A DNA stretch of 64,000 bases from the NCBI RefSeq assembly GCF_002105155.1, contig NW_019028995.1, positions 558,001 to 622,000 of the forward strand, read 5' to 3'. The stretch's first letter is position 1, and the number at the start of each line of letters is the position of its first letter. A program made the position numbers and the translations under genes. The notes under the pieces are model-generated. The model was not told where the DNA came from. It ran no database searches and was given only the letters and a program-made list of their open reading frames with translations. Positions 1-10,400 of this stretch are shown piece after piece. This DNA is from Lobosporangium transversale (lineage: Eukaryota).

Positions 1-3000
1 CCGCAGAGTCGTCCATGCAAAGATGAAAAACGAAACCATCATTGATGTAGGAAGGTCCCTGGCACTCGAGATAAAGGATCTTTTCACAACGGACAACCTG
101 ACTATACATGTTGATGGGGAACCTTGTACTGAGAAAGAAAAAGCAAGGACAGAACGGCAAGCCATAAGACAAAAAAATATGGACGCTTTGGAGAACAATA
201 TGAGCACCTTCGAGAGAAATTCTCGGAGTGGGGTATGGACTCGTCCTCAAGTCATGAGGCGCATCCAGAAGGGTCTTCGAGAAGTCCACACCCTGAGCGT
301 CCAGGACAAGGATCAGCTGGCAACAGGCCTTAGTTCTGTCTTCGATGTCTGTCTGTGTGCATATGAAGCGGACCCATGCATAGGGTGCCATGATGAGGAG
401 AATGATAGGATCGTGATATCCCAAGACTCTGATTTTTTTGCGTACGAACGAGTCTGCTTCCTAGTGCGACCCCTTCCACACCGTAGACGGAAGTTTGGGG
501 TTTACGACGTAGACAACGTTATCCAAGCACTAAGACTGCCAACACACGCGCATCTGGTGTTATTCTGTGCCATCGCAGGCAATGACTACTCAAGGAACCT
601 CGAGACGTTAGGCCCGGTTAATAATCTTCGATTAGTTCGAAAGGTTGCGTGGAACAAGACCTACAATAAAATACTTCAAGATTACCTCGGGGAAGCTAAT
701 AAGGTGTTGGGAAGGAACGTAGCCTCTGAGGAAGGCCGTTTCAGTGTAGCTCTCCGCATTTTTACTTCCGGCCATCAAACGTCGGCCCAAGCGTTACCAT
801 CGAACAATGAGTTCGATAACTTCAAGCAGCGTCTACTCAATGGAAAGGATCTTCGCCATAGAATGGCTCAGCAAAGGCGAGCGCAGCGCCGCAGAACGTA
901 AGAAAGCTCAAGCTATAGTTTTGGCCTTGAAACCATACGTCCCCAATACTAATCGTTAGTCCCTTTCTTGGATAATGTAGAGACACACCATCATTCTATA
1001 TAGCGAAAGGGTCACATAGGAACCAGTTCCGGCCCATCTTTTCTGACAAGGCGAGCATATTGAATGGGCGCACAGTTGATATCAGTAACTGCCGTCAGCA
1101 CGATAGGCCGGGCCTTAAGCATCCACCACGTCGGAAAAAGGCAAAAAAGAAGCAACAGAAAAAACAAAAGCGGAAGCATAAAGGCAAGAAGCCTCACAGG
1201 GCTAAAAAAGAAGGTGCACCAATTAGGAACTTGAAGGATGCTACGAAGGATGATCACAGCTACAGCAGTAAGTACCCTATCAAGGCCTTAACAATTGGGT
1301 CCCTTAAGGCCTCCATGGCAAGGAAAGGCGAACTGGACGCAGATGAAAGGGATAGTATTGTAAGCCAGACCCGAGGGGCAGTTGTTGTCCTCAACCGACT
1401 ACGCCGCTATGCATACTGGGCGATTGCCTTGGACATTGAGAGGATTATGCGGTTACCAGGGGCAGCAAGGTCGAGGAAAAAGGCACTGGACGAGGCCTTG
1501 GATAGCAATGACTACTCCTTCCGTCTCGCCACCCTTCTTTTAAGTGGTCAAGGTGGCCCCAATTCAGCTTACGCGAGGACAAAAAAACAAGGAAAGGCGT
1601 AGAAACGCCCCATTACCTCCTCGCTTATGAACATTTCAAGGCCATCACTGAACTTTCCCCAATAAAGGAAATAGACATCACATTGGGGGACGTGCAAGGC
1701 TTTGATCCCAAAAAGATCTCATTTCCAAGAGCGTCAGAGCTACTAATGGGCCAAGTACAGATATCATTAAGGCAGCACTACAGGAACGCAATGGTATAGC
1801 TTGTGTAGGGTATTTTCATGTATATTCTGCAATCAAATGCTCTTTATTCAGACTCTTTTTTTTTTTTTTTTTTTTTTTTCTAGTTTAATGTCGAGAAAAC
1901 AAACGAAGATATGAGCGACATTGAGTTTTTTTTGCGGGAGAACAAAAAAGTGAAAAAATACTCAGACTTTCCTACGTCCTCCTGGTCACCCAGGTATGTG
2001 TATCTGTCTGAACACGCCCTAGTTGACGTCCTCTGGGCGAACGAAGATACCAAGCAGCTGCTGGAGCGTATTCTGCCTCTCGACAATCCTTCCAAGACTG
2101 CAATGTTTGAGTGTACAGGGAGCAAAAGGGGTTTTGATTCAGGCTCTCTTTTGTGACATTGGAGGCGATCGCATGATTCTTGGATATCGAGACAAAGTAT
2201 CCCTGCAGTCACAGGACAAAGATCTAACTCGGTTCAAACTCAAAGGAACGATTTCTACCAACGGTCTAGTTCTGAATCTACTTGCCTATGACACAACCCA
2301 GACGAAGAAACAGCAGCAGTCTGACGTAGATGAAGAAGACCCCAGCCAAGAACTGGAGCTTTCTCAGGGATTTCTCAGCACGACGTGTTCAAAGGCAGCC
2401 GGTGAAGACCTGACAGATGAAAACTTAGCAAACATAAACTGGAAGAGGAGCTCCAAACTGCTTGAAAACGTTGAGCTCACATTCAACAACCAGGGCGGTG
2501 CCCATCCGCAAACACCACAACTATCGTCGGATGCGATCCTGGTATTGTTAACGCCTTTACGTTTTCCTCCCTGTATCCTCACAACCCTAACTTGCGGCAA
2601 ACGGTAAGGTGAGAAGCAGGTTCTTGTACCTCCCCGTCCTCCGCTTCAATCACCTATTGAACAAAAGGAAGCGTGAAAAAGGAATGATTGAGGTTGAGAG
2701 CGCCATCCCTGTGTTTGGAAGGGATACGTACAATGAGTACTTTCAATGGATGAACGAGGAGTCCCAGACACAGATAGGATCAAAGAATTTGGATGTGCTT
2801 CAAGAGTTCTACGAGTCCAGATGGCACCTGAAAAAAATGGGACCTACGAAAGGCTCAACGAGCTACGTTCGACTACGTGGTACAGCGAGTGTTGAAGATG
2901 CTCGGGGAAAAAGGAGTACTTGTCGTCGGCCTAGGGTCCTTTGAAAGTAGTAAAGGAGTTCCCAGCAAGCACACTGCTATAACGAGACATCTTGTCACAC

Positions 3001-3356
3001 AGGTATGGCTTTTTTTAAAAAAGTAAGAAAAGCTGGAAAGCCATAGAACCTTTGCTAATAAACGACTGACCATTTGAAACGCTTAGGTCAAAGCACGAGG
3101 ACACTTCGCTGTAGGAGTGCACGAATTTTACACCAGCGCCCGCTGTCCCCGACCCCTCTGTGATAGCTTTTTAGAGACGGTGTATCCTCGCTCTAAATAT
3201 TGCCGGACATGTAAGGTATTCTTCGACCGTGACGCAGTAGGGGCGGAAAACATCGCAAAAATCGGTCTTGCTCAAATTGAGAGGCAAGAGAGGCCTGCAA
3301 AGTACAAGCCCACGGAAGAGTCGCCTGCTCCGGCTGCAAAGCGCGCACGACGCTAG
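1..3356 (+). CDS. XPG/EXO1-like PIN nuclease fused to a Fanzor (TnpB-like RuvC + zinc finger) nuclease; 5'-truncated by the window and frameshifted as assembled (pseudogene or assembly error)
   Basis: Exons <1-897, 981-1793, 1884-3002, 3087-3356 with GT-AG introns that keep frame. PIN motifs: HVDG (D 113-115), K-x6-R arch, YEAD (365-373), QDSD (425-433), AGNDY (578-589). Fanzor motifs: GTISTNG, IVGCDPG (RuvC-I D 2535-2537), VGVHEFYTS (RuvC-II E 3123-3125), CPRPLC...CRTC zinc finger, FDRDAVGAENI (RuvC-III D 3231-3233). Five frameshifts are needed; there are no in-frame stops. Confidence 0.85.
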
Positions 3357-3480
3357 ACACAAGTATTTGGGTGCCGGCACACCCACAAAAAATTTGTAAG
3401 TTCTGTTTATTTTCGTCTCCTGTATCCTCTCTAATCTTTTGCCCCTGAATTTCTGGACTAACTTTAAAAACCGTACAGAT
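1..3480 (+). mobile_element. Putative Fanzor-carrying mobile element, right-hand part; boundaries not defined
   Basis: Fanzor/TnpB genes are typically transposon-associated (established knowledge). No transposase, confirmed terminal repeat or target-site duplication is visible in the window. Confidence 0.45.
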
Positions 3481-3500
3481 CAACAGATACAGAATACATG
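3357..3500 (+). ncRNA. Candidate omegaRNA scaffold/guide region downstream of the Fanzor ORF
   Basis: Lies immediately 3' of the RuvC ORF. Contains hairpin TGGGTG-CCGGCA-CACCCA (3368-3385) overlapping the palindrome GTGCCGGCAC. Positional inference only. Confidence 0.3.
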
Positions 3501-3573
3501 TGTCGTCTACGTGTCGTGAGATTTTTTTTTTTTTTTTTTTTTTTCCTTTCTTCTCTACAAAACCATCACCATC

Positions 3574-4992
3574 ATGAACTATACGACAGCTGATCTCGAC
3601 AATTACTTGGAGTTCGCCATTCACCTTGCCAAGTTGGCAGGCCCTGTCATCCTTGAAGGATTCAATTCGCGTTTCACGCCAGAGCGCACCGAGCATCTTG
3701 TCAAGGTGGGCAACACAGCGGACCTGGTCACACTGTGGGACCAAAGGGTCGAGAAATTGGTCCGCGCTGAAATTACAGAAAAGATGAAGACTCACTCGTA
3801 AGCCGTCTCCTTTTGCTTAACAACTTAAAGGATAATACAGCCTAGAAAGGAATGTTTTCAAAATCAAAAGCTTTACAACTTGGTAATCTCAAATCGAACG
3901 CCTTTTTTTATATAATTAAAACTACAGATTTATTGGTGAGGAAACTGTTGCTGCAGGCGAGAATTGCAGCTTGACCGATGCTCCTACTTGGATCGTTGAT
4001 CCTATTGATGGTACCACTAATTTTGTACATGGGTAAGGAACAAAAAAAAAAAAGCTCACTTGAACATATCATACATTTAGGCTATTTATGAGTTTTACGC
4101 TCGTTTTTAGAACTTACAGAACATTTTCTTCTTTTTTCGTGGTTGGCTGTGTCCTTTCAGATTCCCTTTTGTCGCAATCTCGATCGGCTTGGCCATCAAC
4201 AAGGAGCCAGTTGTAGGAGTTATTTATAATCCTATTTTGAATCAAGTAAAGTAACGTTTTTTTTTTTTTTTTTTGTATTTTCGTAATCATAACATGTCCA
4301 ATGTCTTACTTTTGCCCTTCTTACTTTTTTATAGTTGTTCACAGCTGCAAAGGGTCAAGGAGCGTATCTTTCCAAGATTGATGAGAACCCCCGTACACAA
4401 GGTCGACGCCTACCTCTGTCGTACCCTTACCCTCCGCCACCACTCCCTTCACTTTCCGTGGCTTTGATCGCAGGTGAATACGGATCAGAGCGCAAAACTG
4501 AAATCATTGATTCAAAGGTCAAATCTTTGCGTAATCTCTCTGCAAAAGATCCTTCGGATCTGGCGCCTGGTCGCGCAGTGGGACATGCTCACGGTATTCG
4601 CTGTCTAGGCAGTGCAGCTATGGACATGATGACTATTGCCCAAGGACAGATGGACGTGTACTGGGAGATTGGATGCTGGGAGTGGTAAGTCATAAAAAAT
4701 AAAAATAAAAATAAAAATAAAAAAAAGAACGCTGACTCATTACTTAATTCAACTTATTAGGGACGTATGTGCTGGAATCATTATTGTTCGCGAGGCTGGT
4801 GGTATCGTGGTAGATGGGTGCGGTCGGGAGGTATCTGATGGCCAGCTTTTGACGGGTCGTCGATTCTTAGTTGTCCGCGGATGCTGTGGTGAAGATGGCG
4901 ACACCTCTCCTGAGGCTTCATACAAAGCTCAACAGAAAATTATACAAGAAGTTTGGTCCATTGTTGAAGACCTTGAGTTACCTCGCAAGTAA
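3574..4992 (+). CDS. INM1: Inositol monophosphatase (multi-exon)
   Basis: DLVTxx[30 protein letters not shown] and WEWDVCAG motifs across GT-AG introns (first intron 3798-3927). The symbol is family-level. Confidence 0.93.
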
Positions 4993-5796: not shown

Positions 5797-7464
5797 TTAC
5801 TCCATTACAGAATCTGAGGACTCTGCCAATCTTTCCCCCTTCAGCTGTTCCTGCCGTTGTTGCAATCGTTGGTGCTCCAGGATAAACATTCGATGTTTAT
5901 ATTCTTCAAGAGCTCTAGAGTCCTTAGGAGGTGATATGGTTGATACTCCGGTCACTTGGTGATTGAATGTTGCTTCCATCGGAAAAGGTGGAAGGATCGC
6001 GTGTGCTGGCAGCTGCTGTATATTCTCGTGCGGAAAGTGAGCTTTCTGACATGATTTATTGAGGGATTGGGCGTCTTCCGGCCGCTGCAACTGCTGTAGC
6101 TGCTGGCACTGCTCCTCCTGTGATACTGCAAAGCGGTTAATAGCCGTATGCCCCGGACCTCCCATGATGCATTCTTGCACGTCAGGAGTTGGTGTTGAAA
6201 ACGAATCATGGCACTCCATCTGTTGTGTTTTCAGATTAAGCATCGATGTATTTATAGCACTCCGATCTGGTGAAGGCAGTGGCTGAGCTGGATTCAGCGA
6301 TGGTAAAGACTGCAACAACGTTGGTAGCCCAAAAGAAGATACCCACGCTAGCGACGTATGCGATTGTTGAACGTAATGTTGCTGTTGATACAGCTCTTGT
6401 ATCTGCTGTTCAGTAGAAGGTCCACACCTAGACTGGAAAGGATGACTGGGCAATGGCACGGGAGGGGATATTGGCGGAAGTAGATCGAGATGTGACTGCT
6501 GCTGTCGCTTTCGATTTTGTTGTGAATGTGCAATAGCTTGGTGCGCTTGCGACCGTATATCATCACCAATAGGAAATAATGTGGGGTAAGGCCCTTCAGA
6601 ATGCCTGCGCAACGTCGATGGCGCCCCGTTTTCTTCAAACCTTGTCAAAACCTCTCGTGTGTTTTGTTGCCACATAAGCGAATCCAGACTATGAGCACGT
6701 ATCAGCGAGGGTGCTTCATGCACTTGGCTGACCAAGACCATATCCATGGCAGAAGGAGCTGGAATTGAGGCAGCTGATGGAGATTGTTCTGGGCTTGGAA
6801 GGTGACCACACTCCGTAGCAGATGTGTTGATAGTGTGTCTTACAAGGGTTATGGATGGCATTGTTGCAGTACAGATACACGTTTGAGGTCGTGTTGGATT
6901 ATTGTTACTCTGCGCTGTCGATACTAACGGTGATGGTGATTGAGATGAAGGGGAAGTAGCTGAGGCGTCTGATAGCCTGTAAGCTGTGGAAGGCATGGTA
7001 ATGATTGCCTTTGAGTCATCTAAAGATAGCGTTGATGTTTGCGGTGGGGTGATGGCTGTAGCTTGCAATGGTGCAGATGATGAGGCGCCAGGGCCATTGT
7101 TAGATGTCGATGCGTCGAGCGGGTGTAATGACTGCGACAATGGGAGCTCTAAACCCTTCAGATGTACGGCGGCGTCTTCAGGACAATCCAATGGGCCTAA
7201 GGCTGCTGCCCGTTGCCATTGTTGTTGATACTGAGAACCCTGCTGCTGCTGCTGTTGCTGCTGTTGCTGCTGTTGTGGGTTGCCAACCATAGGATTCCAT
7301 AGCGATGACGCGTAGCTAACCTGCGGGGTTGAGTCTTGTTGCAATAAGACGGTATCCGCAAGGTTCTTCGGGACACTCCCTGGTTCTGAATAACGTCTAA
7401 TCATAGTTTGCTAATAAAAAAGACACGGCATTCATATGATGAAATTCAGTGAATGGATGCGAAA

Positions 7465-7497
<33 letters not shown>

Positions 7498-10400
7498 CTA
7501 GTAAGATGGGGGAAGACCTACGTTGTGTGAGAATATAGGCTGTGAAAGCCGAGGGCCTGGTCTCTGAGCATTAGCCCCTGGAATAGCCCTTGACCATGCA
7601 GCATGCTCTATTTGATGCTGAAGCTGCGCTAACATTCTTGGTGTTTGTATTTGTGGTAGTGGAAAAGAATCTGATAACAGAGGATGGTGGTGCAGTGGTT
7701 GTTGTTGCTGTTGCATCTGTTCTGAGGACCGTGCGCTACGCAAACTAGATGAGGCTCCTCGATCAGCCTTAGAGCTGTCTATCCTATTTCCAGTGGCCTC
7801 CCTAGGAGCAGCAGCGCCCATTTCTGATTGATAGATATGTAGATCTTGCCTTGAAAGGGATAATGAATACCTATCAGGGAATGCGAGCTCCAAGGACGTC
7901 GATGGCCCTTGTATTGTAGACGGAGTCACTAATATTTGTTGGTGATGATGAATTTCACTCATCATCTCAGCAGTGAGGCCGTCAGGCGGCATAGATTGAC
8001 CAGGAATGAGTAGATCGGGGCTGACATGTTGAACTGGATTACGCGTGTCGGCGTCAAGGGAAGTATACATTTGTTGATTTTGCTGCAGCGGATGAGCACT
8101 ATCATGCAGTTGGTTTAACTGGTGCTGTTCCTGGAACTGGTGTGGTTGATAAGAAGCTACCATGCTTCCTTGTGCTTGTAATACAGGTTGCTGTAGGCGT
8201 CCAAATGCAGGGCTTTGTGATTGAAAATAGATTTGGCCTTGAAATTGAGCCAACTTTTGACCTTCTGAGGCCATTAGTGCAACGTTAGTCTGAGAACTAT
8301 TGTGCACGCAAGAGGAATGTGCTGTACTAATCTGCAGATCCTTACTGAAGCACTCAATGAAATCGGGCGGGCAAGAGTTACGGCGAGCTGCAGATTGTGA
8401 TTGTTGCCCGTCCTCAACCCTATTTGCCTTCTCTTCTCCCACTGAAAAGGATGTAGCATGGTTTTGTACTAGACACATTTGCATATCACTGCTATCATTG
8501 TAATTGCCTGTGTTGCCGGTGCAGGGTCGTTCGGAGACAGGCACATCGAAAGACACTGGCAATGACTGTGCATGAATGTTATGTAAGTCTTGCGTTTTCG
8601 CCGCCCCGTGTCCCTGATTGCTGAATAAGGCTGCCTGCATGGTTTTGGCTTCAGCCAGGCTAAATTCTAGATTACTGTCCCACTGGTGCCGTGAATGTCT
8701 ACCGGCATTGTTAAACATCTGATTTATATAGCGCTCCTTCTGCTGGCCTCGCTGGTGCTGAAAGTCATCGTTTCCACTTAAAGAGTATGTTTGGGACGTA
8801 GATTGTTCCAAATCAAACTGAACACGCGCCCCTGGGTGGGATCTGCCCTTGGCTGTCTTCAGAGATGAACGCCTGCGTCCCTTGGCGTCAATTGGCGGTA
8901 CAACCTCGTCTGGGTTGGAAGCTGAGTTCATTGGCTCGGAAGCGGCCCCTCTACCGATACCTAGGATATCATATTCTTGCTGTTTGGTGCTTCCTGTTCG
9001 TTTCAAATACGGGTGGCTCCGAGAAGGGCCAGCTGAAGCCAAAGCAGCAGCCACCTCAAGTGCGCGTCTAGAGTTACTTTGATGCTCGCCTTGCAGTGAC
9101 TGTTGGAGCATATGGCTGTTGTTTGTGCAACTTTCCACTGAATTTGCATTGCTTTCGGGCCTCAAGGGCTGTATTAGCTGCTTGGAACTAGGAACCGTCT
9201 CCATTTTGGGAGGTAGCATCGATGAATCCCTGGTATTTGGCGACAAAGCTGGTATATAATCTATTTGGGGAGCAGCCATAGTGTGTGTAATGTCCCTAGT
9301 AAGACCAAATTGGGTAGTGGTTTGTTTCGAAGATGCCTCAGCAACAGTTGTACTAATAATGGCTTTGCCAGTACTACTCCTTCTTCGCCTGCGAATAGCT
9401 CCGGTCGTCCCCTGAAGTCCCACATCGTGTGGAGGTAGGCTGTGAATGTCTGCTGAGGGCATGACTTCCAGCCTTTCGGCGCTTTGGTTCGGGTGAAGTT
9501 CGTTTGTGGCATGAATAGAAATCTGACGTGGTAATGGATATGTTCGAGCACTCGCATATGAACACGACTGTGTCTGTTTTCGCTCAACGAGCATCTCACC
9601 CGGGCTACTAACTTTGTGGCCCTTGTTCGGCGTTAATTCCTCTGATGAGATAGAATGGAGGCTCATGCACTGCATCTCGGGATCGGCATGAAGCTGTGAG
9701 GACGTATCAAGGCGCGAGAGCTGAGGGCCTTGTGTTGGAAAAATAGAACAACACGCACTCATTTCATTCAAGTCGGATGCCTCATTGTCTTTGAGCGAAG
9801 CTGGCATAGACATGCGACGGATCAAGCCCGACATTGGTGGTCGCCGAGAATTTGAGCTGAAGGGTTGATTAGTTGGTGGAGCATGTGGTACTATGCTGTG
9901 ATGTGACCTATTATCTATAAATAGTGTCATGGCTGCATCAGATTGCCGCTCGAATATAAGCAAGGAAGCTTTGGCACATTATCGCCTCGTCTGTTTGGCA
10001 GTTACCTAGGTTCAGGGACAGAGCATCGTGTGAGTCCTCCACCTTGAGATGGATGGCAGCTGGCGTAATGCGACAGTCGTCCCTGCTATGTAACGGCAAG
10101 CTGTCTTGCATTACTGAAGCAGTTTCACGTTGTGGCTCGAGCACTGGTGGCAATGGAGGTTTCTTACCGAGCACTTGATCACATTGCGCGACTCGTTTCC
10201 ATGTTGATAGTGGGGTCCAGAGCCTTTCATCTTCCGAGCATCCAGCTTGATCTGAACCCCTAGTCAAAGTCAATTCTTTGCTCTGCTGAATGAATATAAG
10301 CGAAGGATTTGCAACAGCTGATAAGCTTGTCCGCACATGGCCGCTTACGGGAGTGTCGAGATTTTTGAATGATTCATCCTTTCTATGGATTGCGGTAGAG

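Follow-up and report, generated by a model that had tools for sequence, protein, structure and literature searches.

Several described systems resemble parts of the locus analysed here. Fanzor1 nucleases such as SpuFz1, PpFz1 and GtFz1 (PMC10432273, PMC11423790, PMC3627910) have a REC-WED-RuvC-TNB fold, a D-E-D triad and a C4 finger, and are encoded by multi-copy elements with a short 3' non-coding tail and two predicted stems; most of the proteins are described as 600-700 aa long (PMC11423790). Their scaffolds are reported to terminate in a stem (PMC10711439), and their omegaRNAs to continue for ~15 nt beyond the end of the element (PMC10711439; PMC10432273). The FEN-like 5' nucleases, including EXO1, FEN1, XPG/Rad2, GEN1 and poxvirus G5, share a PIN core, a Lys/Arg helical arch and an H2TH/H3TH region (PMC5499597). 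A FEN-fold 5' nuclease has been tethered to an RNA-guided nuclease in the engineered fusions hEXO1-Cas9 (PMC11107001) and T5 exonuclease-Cas12f (PMC12337685). In IStrons, which are bacterial group I introns, splicing and omegaRNA share one transcript end, and splicing is described as conflicting with the guide RNA (PMC10690162).

In the window, the 64,000-nucleotide stretch of Lobosporangium transversale DNA that we analysed, bases 2-3356 of the forward strand hold a FEN1/EXO1-type nuclease head followed by a Fanzor1 body, with three introns and five frameshifts. The family to which this copy belongs has the Fanzor1 fold, triad, C4 finger, multi-copy state and short 3' tail with two predicted stems, and adds to them a FEN-like head of ~300 residues, a basic linker and introns inside the candidate omegaRNA. 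Its head, 15-19% identical to solved FEN-like members and in no clear subfamily, differs from those enzymes in being joined, on a mobile element, to the fold of an RNA-guided nuclease. Compared with the engineered exonuclease-Cas fusions, the family is natural, old and kept under selection, with an activity that is predicted. Unlike the group I IStrons, it has a spliceosomal GT-AG intron within the candidate scaffold, which is predicted to be assembled by splicing; its introns are 78-106 nt long, GT-AG, with branch sites, and no Rfam family matched in 3300-3600. That head and Fanzor body are fused in one gene is almost certain. We lean modestly towards reading the locus as a dead copy of an element whose fusion protein and spliced omegaRNA would combine cutting, 5' resection and recombination, activities that we infer.

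All features of the gene lie on the forward strand. Exon 1 (2-897) encodes the head, a FEN-like PIN domain with H2TH/H3TH identified by a Rad2 match, a profile and a model. Intron 1 (898-980; 83 nt, phase 2, donor GTAAGA, branch TACTAAT at 947, acceptor TAG) falls at the boundary between head and body, and its removal joins the ORF at 2-901 in frame to an ORF running stop to stop from 976 to 1602. A sequence-only reading of this stretch had proposed exactly this joint, with a downstream ORF starting at 1060; the joint was borne out, and the new exon starts at 981. Exon 2 (981-1793), placed by colinear tblastn matches and the model of homologue P0183, encodes a Lys/Arg-rich linker, the first WED strand and REC helices, and has a frameshift near 1597. 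Intron 2 (1794-1883; 90 nt, phase 0, GTATAG..TAG with a long T run, frame kept) is followed by exon 3 (1884-3002), which encodes the remaining REC, the WED with its TNG motif, an acidic linker, RuvC-I (GCDPG) and RuvC helices, and is broken by frameshifts near 2111, 2488, 2607 and 2837. Intron 3 (3003-3086; 84 nt, phase 0, GTATGG..TAG, frame kept) precedes exon 4 (3087-3356), which supplies the RuvC-II Glu, the C4 zinc finger (TNB), the RuvC-III RD, a basic tail and the stop, and is 100% identical to P0152. The continuous chain to RuvC that had been read earlier holds only across introns 2 and 3, and the five frameshifts interrupt it; the six blocks between the frame breaks contain zero internal stops. 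Approximately 47 N-terminal residues, the first catalytic Asp among them, are encoded upstream of the window, as judged from the 91% identical paralogue P0002, and residue numbers such as D38 and D789 are counted from base 2 of the gene model, with X at the breaks.

Splicing of the 897/981 junction, which had been suggested as a check, was seen in one contig of run X5, derived from some family copy, from which intron 898-980 was absent. The RNA nature of X5 is a software guess, and no run holding the stretch is recorded as RNA; we took X5 as RNA-like because the introns of a neighbouring gene are spliced in it. Among the matches listed for contigs of the RNA-like run, there was no splice joint for intron 2 or intron 3, one X5 contig (3017-3368) retained part of intron 3, and no single RNA contig covered the span from head to RuvC. 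Run X8, which carries the same species label, held next to none of the words of the stretch and is uninformative on absence.

Because of its five frameshifts and a substitution pattern that looks neutral, the window copy is probably a pseudogene. High-depth family contigs have 1-2 extra bases at each of the exon 3 breaks, and the five breaks may be assembly slips in base runs that are not in the living genome.

Intact relatives encode one protein of ~1,100-1,300 residues with a FEN1/EXO1-type fold and a Fanzor1 fold. At least six genera of the Mortierellaceae have full-length chains (Mortierella, Entomortierella, Actinomortierella, Dissophora, Podila and Linnemannia), and in tblastn searches full-length homologues were colinear with the window; both domains occur in one chain, as the sequence-only reading had anticipated. 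Among the best 150 head relatives, all 16 of at least 700 aa had REC/WED behind the head, and 13 of the 16 reached RuvC; nine of the 16 helped to build the profiles, and the other seven gave 7/7 for REC/WED and 4/7 for RuvC. It is very improbable that each nuclease is made as its own product, or that the long chains are gene-prediction joins, with the head as a passenger. Consistent with that explanation, 114 of the best 150 head relatives are shorter than 450 aa (a Fanzor part was found in only 6 of those), no public Lobosporangium transversale model spans both ends, and the gene models of most long homologues come from automatic annotation. Against it stand the spliced junction in X5, an in-frame intron at the matching place in metagenome contig L001, identical domain order in 16/16 long relatives, a confident two-domain model, and congruent trees for head and RuvC (Mantel rho 0.74, 0/2000 permutations; 7/14 splits shared), an agreement that is as expected for one old fusion. 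We read the short head relatives as single exons or fragments.

At ~30% identity, L001 carries the whole gene, and its three introns correspond in position by eye; the one at the head/body boundary is phase 2 and lies, by eye, at about the same place as intron 1 of the window. Conservation across 23 homologues was high for the D-S-D Asps (23 and 23), the GND Asp (22) and the RuvC-I Asp (21), and reached 15 each for the RuvC-II Glu and the RuvC-III Asp, most missing active-site residues being gaps in truncated gene models. Judged from these alignments, the catalytic residues of both sites are kept under selection across the family. An index-word search for longer head relatives recovered only P0001 among 1777 candidates, and the head family was reached by a profile-free scan instead. 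Viral contigs gave 20 pattern matches and 0 relatives. We rejected an annotation artefact as a reading, and a giant-virus insertion was ruled out by the GT-AG introns and the host genes alongside.

The evidence for the head comes from profiles and predicted structures. Translated bases 2-898 matched Rad2 (E 1.6e-4), and head profile A4 matched Rad2, FEN1, XPG and EXO1. The model of the window head (pLDDT 95.9) matched EXO1 over residues 1-267 (Z 15.2, rmsd 3.6, 245 aligned), as well as XRN1 (Z 10.7) and T4 RNase H (Z 7.2), and the predicted model of P0183 matched EXO1 over residues 2-308 (Z 21.3, rmsd 3.2, 278 aligned). In these models the head is a FEN-like fold with a PIN core, a helical arch carrying Lys, and H2TH/H3TH. 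The ranking of subfamilies differs by search, with Rad2 on top in one and EXO1 in three (profile or structure), and the head cannot be assigned specifically to XPG, EXO1 or FEN1; the earlier XPG/EXO1-type label survives as a FEN-like fold without that assignment. The acidic and arch residues named earlier were all present in head and RuvC. Head motifs in the window are D38, arch K45/R52, E122-A-D124, D142-S-D144 and G-N-D195; D38, E122, D124, D142, D144 and D195 are each kept at ≥90% in 51 sequences, in which arch K45 is invariant. Six of the seven FEN-like acidic residues are inside the window and the first Asp, seen in P0002, is upstream; we take them to correspond one-to-one to the residues of FEN1 numbering. 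An inactive head was rejected as a reading.

The C-terminal part folds as Fanzor1, in line with the earlier expectation. Bases 3087-3353 score above the Pfam threshold for PF07282 (E 4.1e-7), and the RuvC motifs of the window (D789, E958, four Cys and R993-D994) follow the published Fanzor1 pattern D-X(125,275)-[TS]-[TS]-X-X-C4 finger-X(5,50)-RD (PMC3627910), with D789, T961-S962, C965/970/984/987 and R993-D994. The REC-WED-RuvC-TNB fold with an enlarged REC was seen in the predicted model of P0183, used in place of the broken window copy; its residues 435-1179 matched PpFz1 (Z 18.9, rmsd 3.8, 473 aligned) and SpuFz1 (Z 15.8), and SpuFz1 was its best Foldseek match (E 1.4e-10). A TDG motif in the WED is described as typical of Fanzor1 (PMC10711439); in the family it is TNG in 13 of 17 sequences, the window included, TDG in 2, SDG in 1 and CNG in 1. 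Our placement in the FZ1 branch is that of the published Supplementary Table 1 of Saito et al. 2023, rather than of a tree of our own; the table labels as FZ1 ORZ22893.1, by eye a paralogue of the family, and the head-bearing GJJ73901.1 and KAG0016911.1.

The sequence-only reading had ended the feature at 3356, and the element runs on to 3489. At this right end, loose ends with varied flanks occur in 6 (X2), 5 (X4) and 3 (X5) contigs, and contig depth falls at 3489. Matches to the last exon were labelled Lobosporangium transversale in 25 of 26 cases and were 63-100% identical, and the element appears to be multi-copy and mobile, with ~25 dispersed paralogues; bases 1-3600 have no second copy or inverted repeat elsewhere in the window. 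No transposase family was found in 32 + 12 relatives (44 proteins) or in 14 neighbouring ORFs, and no terminal inverted repeat has been seen so far, with the left end outside the window. Academ transposons, which are not known to carry a Fanzor, carry an XPG-type nuclease and a DDE transposase on a eukaryotic DNA transposon; the window family likewise has an XPG-type nuclease on an element, but no DDE transposase was seen in the same proteins and ORFs. The ~25 dispersed copies and their exact ends are more than homing alone would account for.

It is conceivable, though unlikely, that the head takes the transposase role, trimming flaps after an RNA-guided or host break as the copied strand inserts, so that one protein would move the element to new sites. 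The dispersed paralogues, the exact right end with varied flanks, the absence of a transposase family from those relatives and ORFs, and the absence of any long ORF from the 287 nt upstream of the ATG of L001 are consistent with such a role. Against this, the left end lies beyond the window, Fanzor elements without their own transposase are described and may move in trans (PMC10432273; PMC10711439), and the ends in TA would also fit target-site duplication by a transposase of the host genome.

The sequence between the stop and the right end contains a candidate omegaRNA scaffold with an intron that had gone unnoticed. Its first part (3357-3395) comprises a predicted stem-loop (3368-3385) and an A-rich linker, and a hairpin and A-rich linker precede the donor in most related loci by eye. 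Intron 4 (3396-3478; 83 nt; GTAAGT, ACTAAC, CAG) is followed by the last 11 nt of the element (3479-3489), which once spliced are predicted to form a 4-bp terminal stem with base 3395, giving a scaffold of ≤50 nt with two stems, the second closing at the element end. In one X5 contig, which derives from some family copy, the match to the window breaks off at 3395; the 11 letters of 3479-3489 come next, followed by foreign flank. This junction could also be present in DNA, and there are 120 further loose-end rows beyond those listed. A donor occurs at the matching place in 8 of 10 loci, compared to 0.39 expected. Only stems closing at the defined element end were counted, since unspliced forms also give 4-8 bp, making stems anywhere within 45 nt of the pre-donor base uninformative. 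Between the pre-donor base and the last base of the element, the post-splice stem is 4 bp in the window, 7 bp in L005 and 5 bp in L006/L008 (chance 0.021, 0.0016 and 0.0083, respectively). The second intron of L005/L006/L008 requires an AAG acceptor, L010 is without the 3' pattern, and L001, L002 and L009 do not form the terminal stem in their minimum-energy folds.

The spliced 3' RNA is likely the omegaRNA, and the host flank at 3490-3505, which lies upstream of the following gene (ATG at 3574), would then be its guide, by analogy with Fanzor1 omegaRNAs. We consider it improbable that intron 4 is an ordinary 3'-UTR intron, with the omegaRNA left unspliced or located elsewhere. The intron is dispensable in that L002 has none there, with a 4-bp stem at the corresponding place, and the published PpFz1 omegaRNA is functional when expressed in yeast despite a donor-like CAGGTAAGC; however, the unspliced 3' region of the window is no more stably folded than shuffled sequence (z -1.12), and the post-splice stems of the window, L005 and L006/L008 close on an independently defined element end.

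Under the preferred reading of a resecting fusion with a spliced guide, the protein of intact relatives would cut element-free sites under RNA guidance, the tethered head would chew back 5' strands at the cut, and recombination would then copy the element in; spliceosomal splicing would complete the omegaRNA, and host flank past the right end would serve as guide. Both nucleases are presumed active. Related activities are described for TnpB, which promotes retention via break-stimulated recombination (PMC10690162), for poxvirus G5, a FEN1-like nuclease that serves recombinational repair of double-strand breaks (PMC5499597), and for the human EXO1-Cas9 fusion, which increased HDR and decreased NHEJ (PMC11107001). 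That the head acts on the DNA break and favours recombination is, from this analysis, a little short of an even chance. The head could instead work on RNA, trimming the 5' side of the spliced messenger to free the omegaRNA or clearing the RNA-DNA hybrid after cutting, which we regard as rather unlikely. In favour of this reading, the candidate omegaRNA forms the end of a spliced Pol II-type transcript, from which it needs release, and XRN1 and T4 RNase H, both of which match the head model, have FEN-like folds; but the top matches are the DNA enzymes EXO1 and FEN1, Fanzor1 proteins that lack the head get their omegaRNA with no domain of this kind, and bacterial TnpB is described as using RuvC for omegaRNA release (PMC10690162). 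A broader proposal, that these are a transposase-free class of eukaryotic mobile elements in which a two-nuclease protein and a guide built by the host's spliceosome cut, resect and copy to empty alleles and new sites, with splicing arming the guide, is speculative and on balance doubtful.

The sequence-only reading knew of no characterised example of this architecture. The sequences themselves are known, being tabulated as FZ1 by Saito et al. 2023, where the main-text passages searched carry no comment on them; neither the fusion nor a spliced scaffold was found discussed in the literature searched, some of these searches being loose.

In a clade whose protein brings an end-processing nuclease of its own, the cut-then-recombine model can be tested directly with two point mutants in one protein, which bears on how Fanzors help their elements spread. 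If true, an intron-split guide scaffold would be a new way to make and control a guide RNA, and would explain guides missed by genomic-DNA folding or in hosts that splice them poorly. To shift repair, Cas enzymes have been engineered as fusions with EXO1 or T5 exonuclease; if both halves work as predicted, this family would be an evolved counterpart with a ~50-nt scaffold, a natural cut-and-chew genome editor.

The first part of the Lobosporangium transversale window (2-897) encodes 299 residues with a match to yeast Rad2 (E 1.6e-4) and a weak match to Pfam XPG_I below its cut-off (E 0.013), and 3087-3353 matches PF07282 above its cut-off (E 4.1e-7). Between the two, the frame passes three GT-AG introns (898-980, 1794-1883 and 3003-3086) and is shifted five times (near 1597, 2111, 2488, 2607 and 2837); the protein model has 1034 residues and no internal stops when an X is placed at each break. 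The fusion of a 5' nuclease head to a Fanzor body that the sequence-only reading had observed is confirmed. A 91% identical paralogue supplies 47 further N-terminal residues, which lie before the window begins. At 100% identity, the last exon matches a public protein bearing the species label Lobosporangium transversale, a fungus of the Mortierellaceae, and the automatic gene model of that protein skips four of the five breaks.

In Foldseek, the two best matches to the structure model (pLDDT 75.0, pTM 0.58) of P0183, a full-length homologue, were SpuFz1 and FEN1; residues 2-308 aligned with EXO1 (Z 21.3, rmsd 3.2, 278 residues) and residues 435-1179 with PpFz1 (Z 18.9, rmsd 3.8, 473 residues). 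EXO1 was also the best of 48,161 chains for a model of the window's own head (pLDDT 95.9; Z 15.2). Both halves retain their catalytic residues across 23 homologues of 16-45% regional identity, and the head does so across 51 sequences; judged from these alignments, both folds are under selection. Head and RuvC trees of 17 sequences, with seven C-terminally truncated models left out, were congruent (Mantel rho 0.74, 0/2000 permutations, 7/14 splits common), which fits one old fusion. Giant-virus XPG/FEN proteins and poxvirus G5 form the atlas clusters closest to the head (2-898; score 0.94), which gives no more than a lead towards a viral origin. P0053, another relative, joins a head fragment to HMA and thioesterase domains and is probably a gene-model chimera.

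It could be argued that head and Fanzor are separate proteins. A head scan of 1.84 billion representatives gave 380 matches at E 0.001, and among the best 150 of these REC/WED lay behind the head in all 16 matches of at least 700 aa, with RuvC reached in 13 of the 16. The REC/WED and RuvC profiles were cut from an alignment of homologues that included nine of those 16; in the seven outside it, REC/WED was present in 7/7 and RuvC in 4/7. Shorter matches among the best 150 had the Fanzor part in 14/20 cases at 450-699 aa and in 6/114 below 450 aa, the latter class being taken as exons or fragments, and the TNB domain was found by Pfam alone in 7/32 long matches. A further relative, P0028, retrieved 18 relatives as query, and full-length chains, collinear in order along the window, were named from six genera. 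A metagenome contig (L001) holds a complete gene at ~30% identity, with introns, by eye, at three matching places plus one extra. In X5, a sequencing run that is only guessed to be RNA but that lacks two introns of the neighbouring gene, position 897 runs directly into the second exon in one contig; because this contig has the family's majority letters at that place, it represents a family copy. The proposed splicing across 898-980 is seen in this one contig. No X5 contig spans the whole gene, no joint for intron 2 or intron 3 occurs among the X5 matches listed, and one contig retains intron 3 sequence.

Matches to the last exon were labelled L. transversale in 25/26 cases, at 63-100% identity. 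At 3489, contigs of four runs depart from the window sequence into flanks that vary, and depth falls at this point, contig depth being no measure of copy number. DNA contigs also join across 2397-3367, 3319-3379 and 3368-3440, and depth is maximal over 3361-3500; the family probably includes copies with internal deletions and tail-only (ghost-like) copies. At every one of the five breaks, high-depth contigs of the DNA runs have an insertion of one or two bases relative to the window, which keeps the frame open. Among the 40 differences from the window listed (294 further), 37 were coding, and 27 of these were judged by eye to be fixed differences from it, 18 non-synonymous and nine synonymous. 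The synonymous share (9/27) is as for random transitions (0.34 expected), a pattern of neutral decay, and on this sequence evidence the window copy is probably dead. The breaks fall for the most part within short base runs and may be assembly slips; the C-terminal half of one paralogue's model (P0163) is free of gaps. Elsewhere, L011 holds a decayed head-only remnant with stops (590-2019); before it stand some three imperfect repeats of 70-80 nt and a CT-rich tract, and after it a nickel-transporter gene. Right ends defined independently (window 3489, L005 842, L006 649, L008 1892) all have TA as their last two letters, and this TA could be a target-site duplication that forms part of the scaffold. 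In the window, the ATG of an intron-bearing gene, presumably inositol-monophosphatase-like by its motifs, follows the element end by 85 nt (3489-3574), so that the predicted guide would be that gene's upstream region. Farther on, the minus strand has two long Gln/Ser-rich open frames of 537 and 826 aa (5797-7410 and 7498-9978).

Between the stop (3356) and the element end (3489) lies a fourth GT-AG intron of 83 nt (3396-3478), which might be a plain UTR intron. One X5 contig, found among the matches listed (120 further), exits at 3395, continues with the 11 letters of 3479-3489 and enters another copy's flank; it may be of DNA origin. A GTAAG[TC] donor stands within 100 nt past the stop in 8/10 loci vs 0.39 expected from shuffles, a count that left out L004 and L011 (3' end missing) and includes the near-copies L006 and L008, seven of the 11 loci coming from one metagenome. 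In L005, L006 and L008, which diverge immediately past a common end, two introns flank a micro-exon. When spliced forms were built with the first AG past the branch site as acceptor, a stem from the last pre-donor base closed on the element's last base, with different letters per locus: 4 bp in the window, 7 bp in L005 and 5 bp in L006/L008 (chance of a fixed-end stem 0.021, 0.0016 and 0.0083, respectively). L002, which is intronless here, has a 4-bp stem at the same place, and in L007 the micro-exon letters of L006 directly adjoin the linker, by eye. Against a spliced omegaRNA, the pattern is missing from L010, minimum-energy folds of three loci lack the terminal stem, and one acceptor is AAG. 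The predicted spliced product, at most 50 nt, consists of stem-loop 1, an A-rich linker and the terminal stem; it is similar to the scaffolds of SpuFz1 and PpFz1, which likewise have two stems, and Fanzor1 scaffolds finish in a stem (PMC10711439). We regard the spliced 3' RNA as a candidate omegaRNA, the Fanzor guide RNA. L007 also has a 153-residue low-complexity C-terminal extension (825-1425) and has apparently lost the first scaffold intron. The PpFz1 omegaRNA published in Table S3 of PMC11423790 has a donor-like CAGGTAAGC soon past its first stem-loop, near the family's intron position, and its native form may undergo splicing.

What the analysis shows is the gene structure, the two folds, the conserved sites, the mobility of the family and two splice junctions, each in one contig. 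The cut, resect and recombine mechanism that we infer would begin with processing of the spliced tail into an omegaRNA with the flank as its guide; the Fanzor body would then cut the element-free site, the tethered head would resect the 5' strands, and host recombination would copy the element in. It is supported by analogy with three systems: TnpB drives retention by recombination (PMC10690162), poxvirus G5 acts in break repair (PMC5499597) and hEXO1-Cas9 raises HDR (PMC11107001). Less probably, the head is an enzyme that trims RNA. The head might also be a substitute for a transposase: none was seen in the relatives and neighbouring ORFs scanned, the element's left end lying outside the window, and spread to new sites is left unexplained by cutting, resection and recombination. 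Of the earlier interpretation, in which one protein cuts a target and resects its ends, the single chain and both folds held; the copy at hand is probably not active, and resection is argued by analogy.

The literature searched gave no description of the fusion; one could exist in subscription journals, bioRxiv supplements, Repbase or patents, which lay beyond its coverage. Neither a natural fusion nor a spliced scaffold is mentioned in the portions seen of PMC3627910, PMC10432273, PMC10530073, PMC10711439, PMC11423790, PMC5499597, PMC10690162, bioRxiv 10.64898/2026.06.03.729735, PMC11107001 or PMC12337685. Rows of Saito Supplementary Table 1 (PMC10432273) label head-bearing Mortierellaceae proteins FZ1, one being annotated 'Rad2 nuclease'. 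In rows 1619-1620 of the same table, GJJ73003.1 (1770 aa) and GJJ71254.1 (1946 aa) apparently carry a similar head at distant node numbers, a hint of a second headed branch. The element is a variant of Fanzor1 with an added feature in its candidate guide RNA, represented here by a probably dead copy.
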